The notes under the pieces are model-generated. The model saw only the letters and a list, made by a program, of their open reading frames with translations, was not told where the DNA came from and did no database searches. This document shows positions 1 through 8,314 of a DNA stretch of 8,314 nt, in pieces. Numbering within the stretch: position 1 is the first letter of the stretch; every line of letters starts with the position of its first letter. The position numbers and the translations under genes were made by a program. This DNA is from a virus (Duplodnaviria; Heunggongvirae; Uroviricota; Caudoviricetes). Location: positions 1-8,314 of the IMG/VR virus record IMGVR_UViG_2778261154_000010; one strand, 5' to 3'.

Positions 1-13
1 TTTTTCTGCTCAT
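1..13 (-). CDS. Start of an unidentified minus-strand gene running off the window (only 4 codons, MSRK, visible)
   Basis: ATG at 13..11 preceded by AGGAG (plus-strand CTCCT at 20-24) with a 6-nt spacer, downstream of the stop of the 75..455 gene. Too short to assign a product. Confidence 0.3.
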
Positions 14-74
14 TATTAGCTCCTTCTGATGCCATTCTATTTCAGGAAGGAGTGTCCGTTAAACTCAGGCTACC

Positions 75-455
75 TCAGTTTGCCGCATGCAGTGATGGCA
101 GAATCACATAATCCTGCTGTTTTTCAGTAAACGCAGGGATTGGCTGAACAACTTCTGTCACATCTGCATGCTGACCCGTGTTTTCTGTTCCGGACGCTTC
201 CTGTCTGGCTGTTTTTTCACTCTCAGTCCCTCTCTGTGGGATTAAATCCACAACGGGGGTTTCACGATACCCGGCCTGTTTTTCCTCATCGCCGGATGTC
301 AGCCACCACATCGGGCCTTTGTTGTCTGCCTCACCCCGACGCTTCAGTTTCCACAGCTCGTTGATTGCTTCATCCCGGGTCATGCCCAGGCGTGCTGCAA
401 CTTCCTGTGAAGAGGCTTTTCCCATTGCTTTCAGTGCGTCAAAAACGGTCTCCAT
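75..455 (-). CDS. Small phage protein of unknown function, possible winged-helix fold, immediately downstream of P
   Basis: ORF track 75..521; I prefer the internal ATG at 455 (METVFDALKAMGK...), which has GGGAGA 9 nt upstream. The ATG at 521 has AGGAG only 1 nt away and would overlap P. The segment SSQEVAARLGMTRDEAINELWKLKRRG looks HTH-like. Family assignment from memory is uncertain. Confidence 0.6.
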   Translation of the reverse strand: METVFDALKAMGKASSQEVAARLGMTRDEAINELWKLKRRGEADNKGPMWWLTSGDEEKQAGYRETPVVDLIPQRGTESEKTARQEASGTENTGQHADVTEVVQPIPAFTEKQQDYVILPSLHAAN

Positions 456-489
456 AAAATTTTTCTCCCGGTAAAAATCACTTCTCAAC

Positions 490-1155
490 TCAAACAAAAC
501 CAGCCGCTTTCCGGCGTTCATACTCCTGTTTCAGCAACTCAATTGGCGTTGGTCCCGCAGGACGTTTTGGTCCTGCCAGTTGTCGCCGGATGGGCGGAAC
601 ACTGAAGCCATTACCAACATGCTTTGCCCATTTCGTCAGTTGCCGTTCTGCAAGTCGTTTTAACTCCCCTTCGGTCATCTGCCGCTCAATCCCTTTTGAA
701 CGCATCTCGAGGCAGATGTGATACAGCACGGGCTGGGGCCACGGGTATTTATCGCTCCCGTCGTATCGCCAGGACTCATTGCGCCAGCGACGGTACTCTT
801 CCATCACGGCATCCACCGTCAGACCGAATGGATTGGCTCCGCTTTCCGAAATCAGCGCCACAAACTCAGCCAGGTCCGGAGGCCATGTTTCACCCGCCCG
901 ACAACGCTCCATGCACTGGCGGCAGACCTGCCGGATTTGCTGCTCAGTCATCGCGCCAATCTGTGCAATCCAGAGCTTCGAAGGTGCGGCTCCGTTCTTC
1001 CGGGTCCAGCGGTTCGAATAAACCTCCCCCATGAGTTCCCACAGCTTCCAGGCCGTTTCCGTCGCTGATAAATCCGTTTTCACGTTCCCACTGCTCACGT
1101 GCTGCCCGAATTTCCTGAACTGCCCGTGATGCGGTGCCACCTGGTGCTGCTGCAT
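490..1155 (-). CDS. Replication protein P-like (helicase-loader family of lambdoid phages)
   Basis: 221-aa ORF directly after the O-like gene. The C-terminal two-thirds resemble lambda P as recalled from memory (YPW motif, basic C-terminal tail). ATG at 1155 has a G-rich SD (AAGGGGGG) 5 nt upstream. An alternative start at 951 (MTEQQ) overlaps the O stop in an ATGACTGA arrangement. The 5-prime boundary is uncertain because 944-1155 is also covered by the O frame. Confidence 0.7.
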
Positions 1156-1984
1156 GGCTGCCCCCCTTGCTGACTGGTTTGACCTGTGCCCTGACGTGAT
1201 TTACGTGACGGGCGAATTTCTGCTCCCACTGAACCTGCGTGAACACTTTGCCCTCCGCCATCCAGTAATCCCGGAATGCGGCAAGTTCAGCAGGTGTAAA
1301 TTCCGGCTCCGGCAGAGCCACTCCCCACAATGCAGCCCGCCGTCGAAAATCCGGCGACGGATGCCAGCCATCGGTCATCGGAAATTTCCCGATGGGTTCA
1401 CTCAGGCCGTCCGGAAATTCAGGTTCCGCCACCTGCAACGGCGTACCGTTCGACTCGCTGGTCGGAGCACTCTCGCGCACGCGCGCGTTATGTGTGGGGT
1501 TTAATTCTTTATCTGTATCTTTATCTGTCGTGACTCGTCGTGACATGTCGTGACATATGCGTGACTCATCGTGACATCCCTCATCCTTTTTTCGTGATTT
1601 TTCCCTCTCACGCTGCGCTCTCTTCCGCTCTGCCGGGGATTTCGCGGTTTGCGAAACATTACCGTTATCCTCTTTCGCTACCTGGCGTTTTTCCCATCCG
1701 GTGATTAAATCTCCATCAAGTACCCGCCCCTGCATTGCCCGCAAAATTGAATCAATTGACTCTTCTGTCACGTCGAGCGCACTTGCCAAATCTTCTGTCG
1801 TGACATCAATGTGACCACGTCGTGACACGTCGTGACATGTCGTGACATTTCGTGACGCACTCACCAGAAGGTGAACATAAACCGCCATCACCGTTGCGAT
1901 TGGCTGCCCTGACACCCTGGAAATTGTTCGCCACTTGGGATCATTTGGCATGTCATGCCATAATCTGAGCCATGAAGTAGCCAT
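944..1984 (-). CDS. Phage replication initiation protein, O-like / replisome organizer, containing origin iterons
   Basis: 346-aa ORF with an N-terminal wHTH-like segment ([25 protein letters not shown]), a charged low-complexity linker and a C-terminal domain, followed by a P-like gene. Two arrays of CGTGAC 10-bp repeats lie inside it, as iterons do in lambda O. Its start ATG sits 2 nt after the stop of the upstream ORF (TAATTATG). Confidence 0.75.
1528..1575. repeat. Iteron array 1: five phased copies of (T/G)CGTGAC at about 10-bp spacing, flanked by an AT-rich tract (1500-1527); putative ori
   Basis: CGTGAC at 1529, 1539, 1549, 1560 and 1570, with a degenerate CGTGAT at 1593. The adjacent ttaattctttatctgtatctttatctg is AT-rich. 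Lies in the linker-coding part of the O-like gene. Confidence 0.6.
1798..1856. repeat. Iteron array 2: six phased copies of the same CGTGAC(A) 10-bp unit inside the N-terminal coding part of the O-like gene
   Basis: CGTGAC at 1799, 1821, 1831, 1841 and 1851, plus TGTGAC at 1810; spacing 10-11 bp. Same unit as array 1, about 270 bp away. Confidence 0.55.
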
Positions 1985-1986
1985 AA

Positions 1987-2718
1987 TTAATACCAGCGCT
2001 CCGCTACCAGTTTTTTCCAGTTCCGGGTATCCTGGTACGCAATATCAATACCGTGACTAAGGTTCATATCACGGAACCATTGACGCTGCTCCCAGATCTG
2101 CCATCTGCGACATTTCACTTTCTTCGGGATTACCAGGACTGAAAGAACACCAAGAACCGGTGCTTTCCCTGTATAACGTCTTCGGGCATAATCACGTCTG
2201 CATACTGCCTTTAGACCAAAGTAAACCCCTGACGGAAATACAATCACAGCGCCAGCCAGCAGAACCAGGAGTAATCGGCGAGAACCATGGATACTATCTG
2301 GAGTGAATTTGTTACCTTGTTCAATACGAATCCAGCTCTCATTTCGTTCATATGGACCGTGATTACCTTTGGGTTGGGTATCTGTTTCGGTCATTGGCTG
2401 GCAGTAAACAGGGACAGACGCAAGGAATTCAACGCAATCGCAGATCCTATCGCGGCCGAATTGATGCAAAAAATTAACCTTGCCAGAAAAGGGCTTCTCA
2501 ACATAGTGCAAATTAGCCCGCGTGATATCGCTGAACTCGAAAGAATGCTTAGCGCCAGGAAAGCGCGAAGACTCAGCCATGCCTTCATGGCATATGAGAA
2601 GGCATGCGAAAATTGCGGTAGTTATTCTGTTGATGGTCTTTACGAATTTCACTCCCCCGAGATTTTTATTAAAGGGGCTGAAAACCTTCTGGTTTTTCTC
2701 AAGCGTCGATGATTTCAT
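1987..2718 (-). CDS. Hypothetical 243-aa protein embedded in the early operon between ydaT-like and O; predicted hydrophobic segments near the C-terminus
   Basis: ATG at 2718 lies 11 nt after the ydaT-like stop with GAGGA 7 nt upstream. Its stop TAA is 2 nt before the O start, and O has no good SD of its own, which suggests translational coupling. Codon usage in 1987-2286 is E. coli-like (ctg, ccg, cgt, ggt). Caveat: the 5-prime 430 bp is antisense to a plausible plus-strand ORF, so only one of the two may be real. Confidence 0.5.
2287..2712 (+). CDS. Hypothetical 141-aa single-pass membrane protein, antisense to the early operon (possible moron or exclusion-type gene)
   Basis: ORF with a clean N-terminal TM helix ([24 protein letters not shown]) followed by NRDRRK and an amphipathic helical domain, so a very protein-like sequence. 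AGGAG at 2267-2271 is 15 nt from the ATG, which is poor spacing. It is the exact codon-aligned antisense frame of the 1987..2718 ORF, so it could be a shadow ORF. Confidence 0.35.
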   Translation: MDTIWSEFVTLFNTNPALISFIWTVITFGLGICFGHWLAVNRDRRKEFNAIADPIAAELMQKINLARKGLLNIVQISPRDIAELERMLSARKARRLSHAFMAYEKACENCGSYSVDGLYEFHSPEIFIKGAENLLVFLKRR

Positions 2719-2728
2719 TAATGCTTCC

Positions 2729-3154
2729 TCAATGTACAGCCACGGCATTTCCCGCCGGGCCACCACGATTCATCTGGTTGAAACCGGCGATCGCCACTGC
2801 GACAAAATCATCAGCATCTCTCACCAGTCGTTCCCGCGTCTCCACCAGCTCCCGAAAATAAGCTGAACTGTGGCTGCGCATTCTGGCCACCAGCAAAGGT
2901 GGCATTGCCTTTTCGATCGCTGGTAACAACGCCTGAATTTTTTCAACTGCATCAGGGGTGTCTTTCTCCACCCAGCGGAAAATTTTCTGAGTATTGCGAG
3001 CCAGGGCTTCCGGATGTGAATCGTCGTACAGCTCCGGAAACGTCATTCCCAGTTCAAAATACGCTTTGGTAATCTCTGCAGCCGGTACTTTCTCACCGTC
3101 CGGATGCGCCCAGGTATTCATCGCCATGCGGATGTGTTCATGCCTGATTTTCAT
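2729..3154 (-). CDS. ydaT: YdaT-like protein (cII-position gene of Rac-type prophages)
   Basis: 141-aa ORF (MKIRHEHIRMAMNTWAHPDGEK...) immediately downstream of, and overlapping by 17 nt, the Cro/YdaS-like gene. GGAG sits 7 nt upstream of the ATG at 3154. Size and position match the YdaS-YdaT pair of Rac-like prophages; the assignment is from memory. Confidence 0.7.
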   Translation of the reverse strand: MKIRHEHIRMAMNTWAHPDGEKVPAAEITKAYFELGMTFPELYDDSHPEALARNTQKIFRWVEKDTPDAVEKIQALLPAIEKAMPPLLVARMRSHSSAYFRELVETRERLVRDADDFVAVAIAGFNQMNRGGPAGNAVAVH

Positions 3155-3410
3155 GAATCAACTCCGGTTCATTTGATCTGTTAACCTTACATCCAACAGG
3201 TAAACCGTCGGTCGGGTTAGGGTATTTATCAGGGCGCAATTCATGCGGAGTCACTCCCCAGTCAAGCGCCTCACATGCAGGAATAACCTCCTCCGCAGGA
3301 ACTCGTTTTTTAAACCACCCACTTATGGTTTGTGGAGTTTTACCAAGACGACGCCCTAATTCTGATTGGCTCATTATCGACAGGATTTTTATTTGAGTAC
3401 TTTTTTGCAT
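3138..3410 (-). CDS. Cro/YdaS-like HTH DNA-binding protein (first gene of the early operon)
   Basis: ORF track 3138..3422 begins at a TTG. I prefer the ATG at 3410 (MQKSTQIKILSIMSQSELGRRLGKTPQTISGW...), which has GGAGGG 4 nt upstream. The HTH is near the N-terminus and an LRPD motif near the C-terminus is typical of YdaS/Cro-like proteins. Divergent from the repressor gene. Confidence 0.75.
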   Translation of the reverse strand: MQKSTQIKILSIMSQSELGRRLGKTPQTISGWFKKRVPAEEVIPACEALDWGVTPHELRPDKYPNPTDGLPVGCKVNRSNEPELIHENQA

Positions 3411-3536
3411 GTTTCCCTCCAAACTTTACGATGGTATCGATAATTACAAATTTAATTTTAAATTTCAACTTCTATTTGTAATGCCACTTATCAATTTTTT
3501 CTGTAGAATTGCGAGATTAGTTTTCGAGGGGTGGTG
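3411..3536. promoter_or_regulatory. Divergent promoter/operator region between the cro-like and repressor genes
   Basis: AT-rich 126-bp intergenic region. Contains the 15-mer AATTACAAATTTAAT (3442-3456), which recurs exactly at 4684-4698, plus a partial inverted partner ATTTGTAA (3475-3482). Candidate -10 TAGAAT at 3504-3509 for the repressor gene; candidate -35 TTGAAA on the minus strand for the cro-like gene. Confidence 0.55.
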
Positions 3537-3929
3537 ATGATCTTTGTAAAACGCCTTCAGCAGGTGTTGCAGGAATTGAATATAAACCAGTCAGAGCTGG
3601 GAAGACGTCTTGGTGTAAAACCCCAATCCGTGCAAGGTTGGTTGAAAGGCGTGATGCCAAGAATGGATAAACTGGAAAAATTAGCAGAGCTCTCACAACA
3701 TCCCGTCCATTGGTTCTTTATGGAAGAAGAAGCTCTCGGCGATAAGATGGCTGTATCCACTAATGACAACCAACCGCAACTTACAGAACAGCAACGAAAA
3801 ATCATATCGCTTTTAGATGAGTTACCTCAAAGCGACGCAGAGCAGATCATTCGAGATATGGAGCAAAAACGCGATTTCTATAAACGAAAACTTGAAGAGT
3901 TACTGCGGCAGAAAAACAAAACTGCCTGA
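3537..3929 (+). CDS. Prophage immunity repressor, XRE-family HTH (DicA/RacR-like)
   Basis: ORF track 3531..3929 begins at a GTG; the ATG at 3537 has GAGG 6 nt upstream. N-terminal HTH (QSELGRRLGVKPQSVQGWLKG) and a C-terminal helical region resembling DicA as recalled. Divergent from the cro-like gene. Confidence 0.8.
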   Translation: MIFVKRLQQVLQELNINQSELGRRLGVKPQSVQGWLKGVMPRMDKLEKLAELSQHPVHWFFMEEEALGDKMAVSTNDNQPQLTEQQRKIISLLDELPQSDAEQIIRDMEQKRDFYKRKLEELLRQKNKTA

Positions 3930-3975
3930 TGCGTTCCTTTTCTGGAACGAGTATCAGGCAAATGACTAGCAGATT

Positions 3976-4335
3976 TTATAATCCCACCAAGCTTTCCAAG
4001 GGGATACCAAATTGATTATGAAGACGGCGAATCATTGGTAACGTAAGGCTTCTGGTGCCATTCAACACCTCGTAAACCCGATTTTTTTTCCCAATTGCGG
4101 GTTCCAAATCTTTCACGGTCAGCCCCTGCTGTTCCATGCGAAATCTTATAGCTTCAATTGGGGATGGTGGCTCAATGGGATAATGTTTTTTTTCATATTC
4201 CTCTATTAGCAAACACATCACCTCAAAGAAATCCCCCTCAGGCGTGTTAATTTCCGGTTCATTGTCGAACATAGGCTCAACAGCACGCAACGCGGCTTCA
4301 TAATCTTGCTCTGTACGAATAGGTTTGATGTTCAT
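3976..4335 (-). CDS. higA: HigA-like antitoxin (XRE-family HTH) of a type II toxin-antitoxin pair
   Basis: 119-aa ORF starting 2 nt after the toxin stop, with GGAG 5 nt upstream. C-terminal HTH (GLTVKDLEPAIGKKNRVYEVLNGTRSLTLPMIRRLHNQFGI) typical of HigA antitoxins. Toxin-first gene order is typical of HigBA. Confidence 0.75.
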   Translation of the reverse strand: MNIKPIRTEQDYEAALRAVEPMFDNEPEINTPEGDFFEVMCLLIEEYEKKHYPIEPPSPIEAIRFRMEQQGLTVKDLEPAIGKKNRVYEVLNGTRSLTLPMIRRLHNQFGIPLESLVGL

Positions 4336-4337
4336 GC

Positions 4338-4640
4338 TTACTCCAGTTCGATGGTATCAGCATCAATGGCATCGTATTCCTTGTGGCTTCCGATGAATTT
4401 AACAAATACCCATCCTCGCTGATACGCAATTGCAACAATTAAACGGTAATGATTACCTTTTATGTTGAATACCACACGCCGGCTTTTCAATATACTAGCC
4501 GTTCGGTATTGTGCCTTAATGTCTGCCGGGCTTTTCCAGTCAGCTTTTGCTGCCTCATCCACCCATGCCCTTAGCGGTTGTTCTGCATCGGGATTCTCCG
4601 CCCAAAAATCCCTGAGTGTTTTAACTGAGATGATCTTCAT
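4338..4640 (-). CDS. higB: HigB-like toxin (RelE/ParE superfamily mRNA interferase)
   Basis: ORF track 4338..4685; I prefer the ATG at 4640 (MKIISVKTLRDFW..., 100 aa) because a sigma70-like promoter sits inside the upstream extension. The motif NIKGNHYRLIVAIAYQRGWVFVKFIGSHKEYD parallels the E. coli HigB C-terminal region as recalled. Confidence 0.7.
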   Translation of the reverse strand: MKIISVKTLRDFWAENPDAEQPLRAWVDEAAKADWKSPADIKAQYRTASILKSRRVVFNIKGNHYRLIVAIAYQRGWVFVKFIGSHKEYDAIDADTIELE

Positions 4641-4646
4641 AACTGC

Positions 4647-4675
4647 ATGATAGTCCCATTTTGGGACTAATGCAA
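4647..4675 (-). promoter_or_regulatory. Putative higBA promoter with a palindromic operator in the spacer
   Basis: Minus strand reads TTGCAT - 17 nt - TATCAT, with the perfect inverted repeat TAGTCCCA-AAA-TGGGACTA (4651-4669) filling the spacer. The -10 ends 6 nt before the ATG at 4640, implying a leaderless or near-leaderless toxin mRNA. Confidence 0.5.
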
Positions 4676-4683
4676 TCGTTCGC

Positions 4684-4743
4684 AATTACAAATTTAATAA
4701 TAAATATATTGACCAATTAAATTTTAATTTGTAGATTGTATCC
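4684..4743 (+). promoter_or_regulatory. Putative early-left (dicB-operon, Pb-like) promoter with repressor operators
   Basis: -35 TTGACC (4709-4714), 17-bp spacer, -10 TAGATT (4732-4737). The 15-mer AATTACAAATTTAAT (4684-4698) lies just upstream of the -35 and its degenerate inverted partner (ATTAAATTTTAATTTGTA) fills the spacer. Confidence 0.55.
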
Positions 4744-4912
4744 ATCAACCCACCCCGCCCCACAGAACGCAGGGCAATACTTCGAGTTACCAGGCAGTGG
4801 TCAGGGGTTAAGTAGCCAGCCCGAGGCGTAAGAACATGACGGCAGGGTTCAAATTTTGCAGTGCAGCAGGTTTTAGTTCCGCCACCCGGCGTTAAGGGGA
4901 AATGAGGTCAAC

Positions 4913-5068
4913 ATGAATACTATCGATCTTGGCAACAACGAATCTCTGGTATGTGGCGTGTTCCCCAACCAGGATGGAACGTTCACCGCCATGACTTATA
5001 CCAAAAGCAAAACGTTTAAAACCGAAGCTGGCGCGCGTCGCTGGCTGGAAAGAAACTCAGGTGAGTGA
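4913..5068 (+). CDS. ydfA: YdfA-like small protein (51 aa)
   Basis: ATG at 4913 with GAGG 5 nt upstream; MNTIDLGNNESLVCGVFPNQDGTFTAMTYTKSKTFKTEAGARRWLERNSGE. Size and position as first gene of a ydfABC-dicF-dicB operon as in Qin; below the ORF-track length cutoff. Confidence 0.7.
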   Translation: MNTIDLGNNESLVCGVFPNQDGTFTAMTYTKSKTFKTEAGARRWLERNSGE

Positions 5069-5069
5069 T

Positions 5070-5198
5070 ATGGATTTCGACACAATCATGGAAAAGGCTT
5101 ACGAAGAATACTTCGAAGGCCTTGCCGAAGGCGAAGAAGCTCTCAGCTTCAGCGAATTTAAACAGGCGCTTTCCAGTTCGGCAAAATCTAACGGCTGA
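5070..5198 (+). CDS. ydfB: YdfB-like small protein (42 aa)
   Basis: ATG at 5070, 1 nt after the ydfA stop, with AGGTGA 6 nt upstream; MDFDTIMEKAYEEYFEGLAEGEEALSFSEFKQALSSSAKSNG. The ORF track instead shows a 90-aa ORF in another frame (5065..5337), which I reject. Confidence 0.7.
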   Translation: MDFDTIMEKAYEEYFEGLAEGEEALSFSEFKQALSSSAKSNG

Positions 5199-5226
5199 TA
5201 AGCGAAACAGCACGCGAGGAATCAGT

Positions 5227-5337
5227 ATGCAGAAACGAGAACCCGTCATCATCGCGCCAGACTATACCGATGATGAACTTTATGAGTGGATTTTGGCGGC
5301 ATCAGTTTCATTGCTGGCTGATGTCCGCCCTTTTTAA
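5227..5337 (+). CDS. YdfC-like short ORF (36 aa) whose 3-prime end reads through the DicF-like sRNA sequence
   Basis: ATG at 5227 with GAGGA 6 nt upstream; MQKREPVIIAPDYTDDELYEW.... The stop TAA lies in the terminator T-tract. Shorter than K-12 YdfC as I recall it, and the tail may be fortuitous translation of the sRNA region. Confidence 0.4.
   Translation: MQKREPVIIAPDYTDDELYEWILAASVSLLADVRPF
5279..5335 (+). ncRNA. dicF: DicF-like small RNA (cell-division inhibitor sRNA of dicB-type operons), divergent variant
   Basis: The core GGCGGCATCAGTTTCATTGCTGGCTGATGTCCGCCCTTTTT closely resembles K-12 DicF as recalled, and the following AAAGTGAATTTTGTGATG..GGTGAATGCGGCT.AGCGCACGCGG also resembles the K-12 downstream sequence. 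The 5-prime end is set by processing and is approximate. Confidence 0.7.
5295..5335 (+). terminator. Rho-independent terminator forming the DicF 3-prime end
   Basis: Stem GGCGG-c-ATCAG (5295-5305) pairs with CTGAT-gt-CCGCC (5318-5329), leaving a 12-nt loop, followed by CTTTTT (5330-5335). Confidence 0.65.
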
Positions 5338-5619
5338 AGTGAATTTTGTGATGCGGTGAATGCGGCTAAGCGCACGCGGCACAGTTAAAAGTCATGTTAG
5401 TCCTTATTGTTTTGGGTGGGAAAGCCGACTGTAATTGTTAACTGGTTAACGTCACCTGGAGGCACTAGGCACCGCATCAACAAAGTTCACTTCGGTGATG
5501 AAAGGAAAGAGAAAATGTTGAATGTAGCTATTGAAAACCAGAACGGGTGGAATTATAGTGCACCTGCACCTCATAAAACGGGTGCCGGGATTAGCACCCC
5601 GAAAGTTACTCGAGCGCAT

Positions 5620-5642
5620 AACCGCGCTGAAGCGGTTTTTTT
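5620..5642 (+). terminator. Short hairpin plus T7 tract; weak candidate intrinsic terminator or attenuator
   Basis: AACCGC-gctgaa-GCGGTT followed by a run of seven T (5636-5642). The stem is only 6 bp, so function is uncertain. Confidence 0.3.
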
Positions 5643-5808
5643 ATGCGTAATGCACAGCTACATTCAAATTATGGTGAGGCGTGCGGGGCAGCCGCAAGGC
5701 TGGCCGGGTTCTCGAGTGACCGGTAGTGCTAACCCTGTGCGTCTCACCACCCATGAGATTAGCACCTCTGGTGGTGAGTTAATTAACTTATCACTTGAGG
5801 ATGTCATT

Positions 5809-6357
5809 ATGGCTACTACCCTTTCTCACCCTGACGTAACCATCGAAAATGGTCGCGCCGTCACTACTTCTATTTCGATTGCTGAGTTTTTTGGCAAGCA
5901 GCATCACCATGTTGTTCAAAAAATAGAATCCCTCGAATGTTCTGAACTATTTTTAACCAGCAACTTTTCGCGGGTTAAATTTGAACACCGCGGCAATTCT
6001 TATAACGCCTACCAAATCACCAAAAACGGCTTCGTTTTCCTGGTGATGGGCTTCACTGGCAAAAAAGCCGCTGCATTCAAAGAGGCATACATTGCTGAGT
6101 TCGACCGCATGGAGGCCGAACTGCGCCAGAATAACACCCCACCTGCTGACAAGATGATTCCGGGTGATGGTCGCACTCTGGTTGTTCACTTCGACAAATT
6201 CGGCAATGTCGAATTCACCGAAACCGTTCCTGATGGCGCACTGGTCTGTACCCTGGAGACTTTCCGGTTTTATCTGGAAAAACAGGGATGGACTCTTGTT
6301 AACCGGGGCGCAATTAAAAATATGACTGTGGAACAATTACTCAAAATTCATTGTTGA
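5809..6357 (+). CDS. rha: Phage regulatory protein Rha (pRha domain) inserted between DicF and dicB
   Basis: MATTLSHPDVTIENGRAVTTSISIAEFFGKQHHHVVQKIESL...FVFLVMGFTGKKAAAFKEAYIAEFDRMEAEL matches the Rha-family N-terminal domain as recalled. GAGG sits 8 nt upstream of the ATG at 5809. The ORF track extends the frame to 5407, but the extension is not protein-like. Confidence 0.75.
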   Translation: MATTLSHPDVTIENGRAVTTSISIAEFFGKQHHHVVQKIESLECSELFLTSNFSRVKFEHRGNSYNAYQITKNGFVFLVMGFTGKKAAAFKEAYIAEFDRMEAELRQNNTPPADKMIPGDGRTLVVHFDKFGNVEFTETVPDGALVCTLETFRFYLEKQGWTLVNRGAIKNMTVEQLLKIHC

Positions 6358-6367
6358 GGACGCAATA

Positions 6368-6556
6368 ATGGAGACGTTATTACCAAACGTTAATACGTCT
6401 GAAGGTTGTTTTGAAATTGGTGTCACTATCAGTAACCCTGTATTTACTGAAGATGCCATTAACAAGAGAAAACACGAACGGGAGCTATTAAATAAAATAT
6501 GCATTGTTTCAATGCTGGCTCGTTTACGTCTGATGCCAAAAGGATGTGCACAATGA
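6368..6556 (+). CDS. dicB: DicB cell-division inhibitor (62 aa)
   Basis: METLLPNVNTSEGCFEIGVTISNPVFTEDAINKRKHERELLNKICIVSMLARLRLMPKGCAQ is near-identical to E. coli K-12 DicB as recalled. GAGGA sits 7 nt upstream of the ATG. Confidence 0.9.
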   Translation: METLLPNVNTSEGCFEIGVTISNPVFTEDAINKRKHERELLNKICIVSMLARLRLMPKGCAQ

Positions 6557-6744
6557 ATACAGTATTTGCACTCGTTCTGACGGTTTTTCTTGTTTCCGGT
6601 GAACCGGTTGACATGGTTACTGGCGTATACAGCTCAATGAAAGAATGTATGACTGCCGCAGCGAAACAGAAAATTCCCGGTGACTGTTATCCGGTCGATA
6701 AAGTTATTCACCATGATAATAACGAAATCCCGGCAGGTCTTTAA
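6553..6744 (+). CDS. ydfD: YdfD-like small membrane/lysis protein (63 aa)
   Basis: ATG at 6553 overlaps the dicB stop (ATGA). MNTVFALVLTVFLVSGEPVD... has an N-terminal hydrophobic segment and closely resembles K-12 YdfD as recalled. The ORF track shows a longer 6499 start that overlaps dicB. Confidence 0.8.
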   Translation: MNTVFALVLTVFLVSGEPVDMVTGVYSSMKECMTAAAKQKIPGDCYPVDKVIHHDNNEIPAGL

Positions 6745-6828
6745 AACAGTTCCGTAATAAATATCCGGTTTCATTCTTATATGCCAGCAATGGCAGGGGT
6801 TCGCTCAACCTTAATTAAGGAGAAAAAC

Positions 6829-7026
6829 ATGATTACCAGTTATGAAGCCACTGTTGTAACTACTGATGACATTGTTCACGAGGTTAATCTGGAAGGAAAG
6901 CGTATTGGCTACGTGATTAAGACAGAAAATAAAGAAACCCCATTCACTGTGGTTGATATCGACGGTCCATCAGGCAACGTTAAAACACTTAACGATGGTG
7001 TAAAAAAATGTGTCTGGTGCACATAG
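6829..7026 (+). CDS. Hypothetical small protein (65 aa) ending in a CVWC motif
   Basis: ATG at 6829 with a strong AAGGAG 5 nt upstream; the ORF-track start at 6781 would include that RBS. MITSYEATVVTTDDIVHEVNLEGKRIGYVIKTENKETPFTVVDIDGPSGNVKTLNDGVKKCVWCT. No confident family assignment. Confidence 0.6.
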   Translation: MITSYEATVVTTDDIVHEVNLEGKRIGYVIKTENKETPFTVVDIDGPSGNVKTLNDGVKKCVWCT

Positions 7027-7102
7027 GAAAGAATCTGCCCGCAGAAAAAAAAGCCGAATTTCTGGCAACTCTGATTGCAATGAAATTAAAAGGTGAAATC
7101 TG

Positions 7103-7132
7103 AAAAAAAGAAAGCCTGCACACTGTGCAGGC
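7103..7132 (-). terminator. Hairpin with a U-tract on the minus strand: intrinsic terminator oriented against the flanking plus-strand genes
   Basis: Perfect 8-bp stem GCCTGCAC / GTGCAGGC (7114-7121 and 7125-7132) with a 3-nt loop. On the minus strand it is followed by TTTCTTTTTTT; on the plus strand no T-tract follows it. Confidence 0.4.
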
Positions 7133-7202
7133 CTGAGTGAAGAACCTGGGACATTTATTCATCACTCGCAGTAATTTTAATCTGAGTTGAGGTTAAAAAA
7201 CA

Positions 7203-8314
7203 ATGAGCACCGATAAACAAGTTTACCCACTGTATTACGAAGCAAAAAATGACAAAGTAAGAAAACGCCTCGGTATTAAAGGCGGTTTTTACTGGGCTGA
7301 AGCGAAAAAATTATCCATTGCCATCTCCCGTGGTGCTGTTGCGATTGACGATGCAGGCTACGATGAAGATGACTTTAAAAAACCTGTTCACGTCAATTTG
7401 CCCGTTGTTGATGACCTCCCGCCAGAAGGCGTGTTTGATACGGAATTCTGCAACCGTTACGAAAAAGGCGGGGAAGATGGCATCACAATGGTATTTATCG
7501 CATCTTCTCCCTCTGTTCAGGACAAACCAGCCAGCACTGACAATACCAACGTCAACGGCGAAGACATGACAGAAATTGAGGAGAACATGCTCCTGCCAGT
7601 TTCCGGTCAGGAACTGCCCATTCGCTGGCTTGCGCAACACGGCAGCGAAAAACCGGTAACGCACGTTTCACGCGACGAACTCCAGGCATTACACATTGCT
7701 CGGGATGAAGAACTACCGGCTGTTACTGCTCTGGCTGTTTCGCATAAAACCAGTCTGCTCGACCCGCTGGAGATTCGCGACCTCCACAAACTCGTGCGTG
7801 ATACTGACAAAGTTTTCCCTAATCCTGGCAATTCAAATCTGGGACTGATGACTGCTTTTTTCGAAGCATATCTGGATGCCAACTACACCGATCGCGGTCT
7901 GCTGACAAAAGAGTGGATGAAAGGAAATCGTGTTTCGCGTATCACTCGCACGGCTTCCGGTGCTAATGCTGGCGGCGGGAACCTCACCGATCGCGGCGAA
8001 GGTTTCGTCCACGATCTGACGTCGCTGGCGCGCGACGTAGCCACTGGCGTACTGGCCCGTTCAATGGACGTGGATATTTATAACCTTCATCCGGCACACG
8101 CTAAACGTGTCGAGGAAATTATCGCTGAAAATAAACCGCCCTTTTCTGTTTTCCGCGACAAATTCATCACCATGCCTGGCGGGATGGATTATTCCCGCGC
8201 CATCGTGGTTGCGTCAGTGAAAGAAGCACCGATTGGTATCGAGGTCATCCCCGCGCACGTCACTGAATATCTGAACAAGGTACTGACTGAAACCGATCAT
8301 GCCAACCCTGATCC
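7203..8314 (+). CDS. recE: RecE-like (exodeoxyribonuclease VIII family) N-terminal region, open at the 3-prime window edge
   Basis: Uninterrupted frame from ATG 7203 to the window end (at least 370 codons); it is absent from the ORF track presumably because it has no stop in the window. Segments such as [43 protein letters not shown] and [20 protein letters not shown] match the Rac RecE N-terminal region as I recall it. Its position at the distal end of the early-left operon fits a recombination gene. The family call is from memory and not verified. Confidence 0.55.

Follow-up and report, generated by a model that had tools for sequence, protein, structure and literature searches.

Long pairs of protein-coding genes that overlap on opposite strands have been reported in bacteria, including ano and others in E. 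coli O157:H7 (PMC5960689, PMC9927249) and the pair olg1/olg2 in Pseudomonas aeruginosa (PMC8850804). Such long antisense overlapping genes are few in bacteria and phages, and most of them are disputed and rest on expression data from one strain. Here we describe a related arrangement in a stretch of 8,314 nucleotides (nt) that we call the window (positions 1 to 8,314 of the IMG/VR virus record IMGVR_UViG_2778261154_000010), which holds the immunity and early region of an E. coli Rac/lambdoid prophage and is 100% identical to CFSAN029787 and six other genomes. Between ydaT and an O-like replication gene, the window contains an open reading frame (ORF) of 243 amino acids (aa) on the minus strand and, inside it on the plus strand, an ORF of 141 aa; we refer to these as the minus and the plus ORF. 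We consider it likely that both are real genes and form a genuine antisense overlapping pair, and the sequence comparison supports the view that an older plus gene is wholly embedded in a younger minus gene.

The pair resembles ano and olg1/olg2 in having two opposite-strand coding frames, one of which appears older and constrained and the other younger and weakly constrained. Unlike in those systems, it is here the unannotated ORF that appears to be the older, constrained gene, and the annotated one encloses it completely. The evidence is furthermore comparative, drawn from 16 lineages in several genera, instead of expression-based, and the younger frame is a 5′ extension that feeds a conserved, non-overlapping core. 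The locus thereby offers comparative evidence for a constrained gene lying complete inside an opposite-strand gene, with the second frame kept open while the out-group shows stops. We suggest that the pair could illustrate how a gene is born in nature when translation reads through across an older one, and that it may link the lysogenic and the lytic expression of two membrane proteins.

A true homologue of the plus protein is on record as L13 (NP_543065, UniProt Q8W646) of the Stx2e phage phiP27, which is an inducible phage. The two proteins are 42% identical, and Q8W646 was the sole match of the plus structure model in a Foldseek search of BFVD (E = 1.9e-10, TM-score 0.88). L13, too, is embedded in antisense in this way, its neighbours being cro (L12) and ant (L14), and it differs in that it is annotated with 223 aa from an upstream start, an extension of 82 codons, that its function is listed as unknown, and that the phage has no ydaT. 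These records reveal a blind spot of annotation. In E. coli, the Prokaryotic Genome Annotation Pipeline (PGAP) annotates the minus ORF alone, the authors of phiP27 called only the plus ORF, and both are sometimes called in Klebsiella aerogenes and Enterobacter assemblies. As a result of calling one strand, a membrane-protein family of several phyla is left unannotated in these E. coli records. A literature search for the PGAP protein of the minus ORF, WP_001300539, found no mention of it.

Selection on the two opposite frames

As 1987 and 2287 are both 1 modulo 3, the two ORFs stand in exact antisense frame and share the same triplets; plus position 3 is minus position 1, and a codon-aligned comparison separates the frames. 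Homologues of the plus protein were found at 80%, 66% and 42% identity in K. aerogenes, Enterobacter and E. coli, and of the minus protein at 86–38% identity, with both frames open in 8/8 diverged loci whose DNA was compared. Over 2287–2712, substitutions between the window and locus L003 are distributed 51/12/20 over minus positions 1/2/3, that is, mostly at plus position 3, and the corresponding counts are 78/33/36 for L007 and 22/3/10 for L009. Relative to L003, the overlap has 57 amino-acid differences in the minus frame and 27 in the plus frame, a roughly twofold excess. The ratio of nonsynonymous to synonymous divergence (dN/dS, by the Nei-Gojobori method, the estimates being biased for overlapping genes) is 0.11–0.28 for the plus frame in the overlap and 0.55–1.2, about 1, for the minus frame. 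Amino-acid-level purifying selection is thus seen there in the plus frame only, the sole constraint on the minus frame being that it stays open. Synonymous divergence of the plus frame is not lowered relative to the flank, and both GC and AT skews turn to a plus-strand coding signature over 2251–2700. Outside the overlap, over 1990–2286, the minus frame has a dN/dS of 0.13–0.32, and substitutions fall mostly at minus position 3 (33/21/53 for positions 1/2/3, window against L013). The comparison of dN/dS for each frame across homologous prophages, which had been proposed in the initial annotation of this DNA, therefore separates the overlap (plus) from the non-overlapping part (minus).

The minus frame is stop-free across the overlap in 15/16 diverged lineages, the 16th having one stop near the minus start, and its open frame, start, stop and length are kept across the lineages examined. 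These belong to a group that we define as the enterobacterial sequences whose plus protein starts with M..(I/L)W(S/T)EF...FNTNP, together with the plus loci found with the minus core; in its members the antisense frame is open over the entire plus ORF wherever the contig is long enough. In distant plus homologues outside the group, the exact antisense frame carries 1–12 stops each. The plus frames of 22 group sequences contain no TTA and a single CTA among 334 Leu codons and no TCA among 186 Ser codons, whereas TTA and CTA together make up 25–34% of Leu codons and TCA 16–21% of Ser codons in the out-group relatives. Since other rare codons that end in A, such as ATA, AGA and CGA, are common in the group, the missing stop-forming codons are not a matter of codon optimisation. 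Counted by phase in the 16 lineages, between which third positions are near saturation, TTA, CTA and TCA have a single occurrence in codon-aligned phase, against 234 and 81 in the two remaining phases.

The initial annotation considered one of the two frames to be probably a shadow of the other, and this expectation did not hold: the plus frame is constrained in the overlap, and the minus frame shows stop avoidance there and a constrained C-terminal third. Frame-specific constraint is thus found for each ORF. Diverged homologues with one frame interrupted by stops and the other conserved, which had been named as the case that would settle which frame is real, were found only outside the core-carrying group, in the form of the 1–12 antisense stops. 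The initial annotation had also pointed to Cys/His clusters in the minus protein. The motifs ACLLICH and RICDC are indeed present, but they are not conserved across lineages, where the corresponding residues read GLLICN, ALLISG or GLLVQG and WIGNR, WISNS or LGDG; as they lie in the unconstrained part, we rejected them as a metal-binding site.

The comparison identifies the C-terminal part of the minus protein that lies outside the overlap, which we call the core, as its functional unit. In the window, no in-frame ATG, GTG or TTG with a ribosome-binding site (RBS) was read near the core, so that it can be produced only as the end of the long ORF and any stop in the overlap would abolish it; this explains selection against stops in the overlap. 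The core has a membrane helix and a very basic, Trp-rich tail, which is predicted to be cytoplasmic from the positive-inside rule. Two types of tail are found, the window having type A, while type B (KRRRWMRYH.LKA.RFHRK.P...Y.MPRK.F.QW.WF) is found in K. aerogenes, Morganella and Xenorhabdus. At the K. aerogenes loci L003, L012 and L052, a plus protein 80% identical to that of the window is combined with minus ORFs of 215 aa that have an unrelated-looking type-B tail, a mismatch from which we infer that the core has been exchanged by recombination at the 5′ edge of the plus gene.

When 1.84 billion representative proteins were searched exhaustively with a profile, only 22 members of the minus family came up, so that, beside the plus family, it is young and narrow. 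When the core alone was used as query, every locus recovered had both a long open minus frame (250–295 aa unless the contig was too short) and, opposite to it, an ORF of the plus family; in L108 the minus frame is 195 aa, both ORFs being cut by the contig end. The only free-standing copy found is a 112-aa core in L088 (1162–1500), which has a GGAGGGG-GTG start directly after a YdaS-like cro and is without a plus gene. The antisense of its first codons reads MHILWCQFIT, like the plus N-terminus M..IWSEFV, and this core may derive from an overlapping pair by deletion. In L018 (2779–3417; Morganella morganii H1r), the plus gene follows a CI/S24 repressor gene, and an 81-aa type-B core with a GGAG-TTG start is divergent from it; the 5′ ends of the two overlap by 27 nt, and stops interrupt the remainder of the antisense frame.

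The minus ORF is also fitted tightly into the early operon, as had been claimed from the letters of the window. Its RBS overlaps the ydaT stop, its ATG lies 10 nt after that stop, and only 2 nt separate its own stop from the start of O. An RBS and ATG abutting the stop of the upstream gene recur in most lineages; at most loci this gene is ydaT, with cro in its place in prophages of the phiP27 type and of Pectobacterium. The distance from the minus stop to the next start is likewise 2 nt in L009 and L013, with a 4-nt overlap in L015 and a 14-nt gap in L012, and in most lineages the minus ORF ends within a few nt of the next gene start or overlaps it. The sole GGAG near the O start lies 14 nt before the O ATG, and translation of O is probably coupled to the minus stop.

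The plus protein family and its settings

A profile of eight plus proteins, tblastn and the signature as a search pattern were used to collect relatives of the plus protein. Homologues were found by tblastn in Yersinia, Morganella, Xenorhabdus, Serratia, Pluralibacter, Stenotrophomonas, Lysobacter, Balneola, Desulfobacterota, Virgibacillus and others, and 44 protein clusters were recovered as well; the family is uncharacterised, old and widespread. We define it by a length of 115–150 aa and by an N-terminal membrane helix that leads straight into the motif R-D-[KR]-R-K-E-F-N, with a C-terminal domain of about 90–100 aa that is helical, a layout that the plus protein of the window fits by alignment and model. 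R42, D43, K46, E47, F48 and N49 are nearly invariant in an alignment of 32 family sequences. A sub-branch in L092, L104 and L109 and in P0014, P0016 and P0019 has RYRLDKFN instead of RDRRKEFN, and it retains the embedded antisense arrangement. The AlphaFold2 model, built on the family alignment, has a mean predicted local distance difference test score (pLDDT) of 91.7 and a predicted TM-score (pTM) of 0.70, and shows one long helix (residues 16–67), three more helices and a hairpin. From the positive-inside rule we suggest an N-out/C-in topology at the inner membrane. Together with the dN/dS of the plus frame and the breadth of the family, the model agrees with the earlier proposal of a single-pass membrane protein encoded by the plus ORF and speaks for it as a real product; the ORF has the orientation of the repressor gene.

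The profile and structure searches that had been proposed for the two proteins matched neither to a family of known function. No functional assignment was obtained from Pfam, PHROGs, PADLOC or NCBIfam for both proteins and ten distant plus homologues, the weak matches being to phrog_13469 and phrog_34525, both of unknown function, and PADLOC gave 0 matches to defence families. Foldseek of the plus model against PDB found nothing at E ≤ 0.001, and PDB sequence profiles gave no match.

At five of the ten loci tested, the plus relative directly follows a gene for a CI-type repressor (helix-turn-helix and peptidase S24) on the same strand; these five are enterobacterial-type prophages, from Morganella, Serratia, Pluralibacter and two unassigned viral contigs. 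In Xenorhabdus stockiae the relative comes after an Arc-like repressor, and in Stenotrophomonas it lies between the tail-terminator and the major-tail genes. Such sites are classic positions of accessory genes ("morons"). The plus gene is likewise found at variable positions (7 genomes with and about 1780 without it) and its relatives at lysogeny-linked sites. The suggestion that it is a moron of the superinfection-exclusion or abortive-infection kind thus stands as far as position is concerned, but no homology to any described defence or exclusion family was found. An out-group homologue after cI, in L068 (2863–3357), has an antisense frame that is open for 165 codons with a signal-peptide-like start and is without the conserved core; it may have arisen independently or be no more than a shadow ORF open by chance.

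Temperate phages are known to encode membrane exclusion proteins that are expressed in the lysogen, such as RexB of lambda, SieA of P22 and gp15 of HK97, and Imm of T4 is a further example. The rexAB genes lie directly after cI, and HK97 gp15 lies among tail genes. Like RexB, SieA, gp15 and Imm, the plus protein is a predicted small inner-membrane protein encoded at accessory positions and oriented with the repressor gene; its relatives after cI resemble the placement of rexAB, and those among tail genes that of gp15. Unlike these proteins, it has no detected similarity to them in sequence or fold, and in the window its gene is antisense in the early operon and not in the cI operon. This context makes a defence or exclusion factor a reasonable, though still tentative, proposal for the plus protein.

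Weighing the readings of the pair

RBS-like sequences precede both starts. An A/G-rich, Shine-Dalgarno-like (A)AGGA(G) is found at a similar distance from the plus ATG in all lineages examined; since the AGGAG also lies within minus Leu codons, its conservation cannot be assigned to one strand. On the plus strand, inside the 5′ end of O and directed toward ydaT, TTGGGA-18-CATAAT with an upstream TG (1935–1964, 9/12 match) resembles the promoter of lambda oop. A terminator-like hairpin lies inside ydaT (2886–2903, plus strand), a geometry reminiscent of lambda pO/oop. The −10 element of the promoter match is lost in L009, the closest relative, and in the insert-less L002. Rfam gave no match in the insert region.

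Several points weigh against the reading of a genuine overlapping pair. The evidence for both genes is comparative, and promoter and terminator scans, run on the window and on three further lineages, yielded no more matches than expected from shuffled sequence, with nothing conserved in position besides a weak 8/12 candidate plus promoter. The N-terminal segment of the minus protein is without visible amino-acid constraint, besides the bias of dN/dS in overlapping genes mentioned above. The minus structure model is poor, with a mean pLDDT of 37.6 and values <50 in the N-terminal segment, and does not decide the question because its alignment had 5 sequences only. A signal peptide in this segment was considered and rejected, as its hydrophobicity is like that of out-group antisense frames (p = 0.12); the hydrophobic stretch is, judged from the sequences, a by-product of antisense coding, the default antisense of a hydrophilic helix. 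Finally, the joint probability of the stop avoidance over the 16 lineages is ≤ 1e-27, a value that uses average E. coli codon usage and that overstates independence by treating related lineages as independent.

Even so, readings with a single gene explain less. If only the minus ORF were a gene and the plus ORF a shadow, open by chance or codon bias, the PGAP call of the minus ORF alone would be accounted for, as would the fact that a plus promoter was not found. The substitution pattern and dN/dS nevertheless place the constraint in the plus frame, and the occurrence of the plus family in many phyla without the antisense ORF, the confident plus model and the strand skews point the same way, which leaves this explanation very improbable. 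Conversely, long shadow ORFs arise most readily in the exact antisense frame, and the annotators of phiP27 called the plus ORF alone, so that the 243-aa minus ORF might be a chance shadow within an insert that the early transcript crosses untranslated. We give this hardly any credence, as it is contradicted by minus-frame purifying selection over 1990–2286, outside the plus ORF, by frame-specific stop avoidance in 16 lineages versus stops in out-group relatives, by conserved start and stop junctions with the neighbours, and by the existence of a free-standing core gene.

An explanation closer to the one we favor is that the plus gene and a short minus core alone are functional, with the long frame translated only so that ribosomes cross the insert, which would prevent Rho-dependent polarity and bring ribosomes to the core and to O, and with its N-terminal 142 residues being a spacer. 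This would fit a minus dN/dS of about 1 in the overlap, a pLDDT <50 and a hydrophobic stretch that is a by-product, and also the separate start of the core in L088, which lacks the plus gene, and in L018, in which that gene is displaced. It differs from a genuine overlapping pair only in denying the segment any role, but the length and the start position of the minus ORF are conserved, and a topological role, e.g., as a signal-anchor keeping the N-terminus of the core outside the membrane, is conceivable; we regard a pure spacer as unlikely.

Under the reading of a genuine pair, the insert would be a cassette of two genes, and one 426-bp segment of it would be translated from both strands. The plus product would begin with a short N-terminal tail, cross the membrane with its helix, carry the motif immediately on the inner side and end in a helical domain of about 95 aa with a predicted cytoplasmic location. 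On the minus strand, in the PR early lytic operon, ribosomes would start at the RBS that shares bases with the ydaT stop and translate 142 codons opposite the plus gene, a sequence that may drift as long as stops are disallowed. They would next make the core of about 100 aa and terminate 2 nt before O, probably coupling its translation. In the lysogen, with PR repressed, the plus protein would be made and act at the membrane, an accessory role of the exclusion or defence type being the most likely, and upon induction or infection, with PR active, head-on transcription would silence the plus gene and the minus protein would be made. As the two mRNAs are fully complementary and transcription is convergent, expression should be mutually exclusive, and we regard reciprocal expression through the antisense arrangement as an evenly balanced proposition.

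That the minus core also antagonises the plus protein is a doubtful extension of this scheme. Taken together, the two would constitute a strand-switch module, in which derepression of PR silences a lysogeny-strand membrane effector, of the exclusion or abortive-infection kind, by head-on transcription and complementary RNA and makes a membrane protein, the core, that neutralises it, and which, if true, would protect the lytic growth of the phage itself; we offer this only as speculation. The 142-codon overlap would then be a de novo read-through extension laid over the older gene, and this part of the scheme is just as speculative. Two systems of lambdoid phages invite comparison. The oop RNA of lambda is an antisense RNA transcribed from pO between cII and O. 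The plus unit resembles it in lying at the junction of the cII analogue (YdaT) and O, directed toward the cII analogue and antisense to the early operon, and is unlike it in coding for a 141-aa protein and being ten times longer, and in that the pO-like match at 1935–1964 is not conserved in the closest relatives. In P22 and lambda, esc lies within sieB on the same strand and in frame, and counteracts the exclusion protein. As with sieB-esc, one stretch of prophage DNA would give two products, one of them possibly protecting the phage's own lytic growth; unlike them, the genes of the window are antisense, and the antagonism is hypothetical.

The insert and other features of the window

The features of the locus are collected in Table 1. 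Comparison with relatives lacking the insert bears out the earlier observation that about 740 bp intervene between ydaT and O. The full region is present in 7/5426 complete E. coli genomes by megablast, and about 1780 other E. coli genomes match the two flanks only, these lying within a 228-bp span. In the insert-less genomes ydaT and O are adjacent, and their spacer is 71 nt in one representative. When the insert-less prophage L002 is aligned with the window, identity stops just past the O start and returns 19 nt inside the 3′ end of ydaT, the novel DNA taking the place of the last six ydaT codons. Direct repeats flanking the insert, as a possible cause of the insertion, were looked for and none were found. 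A P-like gene is also on the minus strand of the window.

Table 1. Positions of the antisense pair, its parts and its neighbours in the window
Feature	Position	Strand	Details
Minus ORF	1987–2766	minus	from GTG; 243 aa from ATG at 2718; ORF list
243-aa ORF	1987–2718	minus	PGAP WP_001300539.1, hypothetical protein; member of PR early operon
Plus ORF	2287–2712	plus	141 aa; wholly inside minus ORF; unannotated by PGAP
Minus start region	2716–2731	minus	ydaT TGA 2731–2729 overlaps GAGGA 2730–2726; 7 nt; ATG 2718–2716
Minus stop and O start	1982–1989	minus	TAA 1989–1987; 2-nt gap; O ATG 1984–1982
Minus read-through segment	2287–2712	minus	codons 3–144; about 142 codons opposite plus gene
Conserved minus core	1990–2286	minus	residues 145–243; outside overlap
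Core membrane helix	2206–2277	minus
Core Trp/Arg-rich tail	1990–2112	minus	ends AYxD..WKKLV
Plus membrane helix	2335–2403	plus	residues 17–39; hydrophobic; kept across family
Family signature N-R-D-R-R-K-E-F-N	2407–2433	plus	residues 41–49; directly after membrane helix
AGGAG, RBS-like	2269–2273	plus	13 nt before plus ATG
Weak candidate plus promoter TTTCCC-17-CATAAT	2164–2192	plus	8/12 consensus; position kept in 4–5 lineages only
Inserted module	~1988–2747		approximate limits; alignment with insert-less prophage L002
O-like gene	944–1984	minus	with DnaT domain
ydaT	2729–3154	minus
cro/YdaS-like gene	3138–3422	minus
cI-like gene	3531–3929	plus

Elsewhere in the window, Rfam gave two matches above gathering score on the plus strand, to the Hfq-binding RNA isrK (5566–5642, 68.5 bits) and to the C4 antisense RNA (5667–5754, 78.6 bits). 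They lie just upstream of a Rha/antirepressor-like ORF (stop-to-stop 5407–6357), and the set resembles the antirepressor control module of P1 immI and the IsrK type of Gifsy. Between the cI-like gene and the ydfB/ydfC region, PGAP annotates a HigB-family toxin with a helix-turn-helix antitoxin (3976–4685, minus strand). A DUF1627 gene downstream of P (75–521 of the window, minus strand; 2044–2556 of L001) is annotated by PGAP as two pseudogene fragments in CFSAN029787, which suggests that the prophage is partly decayed. Within the O-like gene, the 8-mer TCGTGACA forms clusters at 1528–1576 (4 copies) and 1798–1857 (5 copies) on the plus strand, mostly 10 nt apart, when one mismatch in one copy per cluster is allowed; these clusters look like origin iterons, as in the lambda ori within O.

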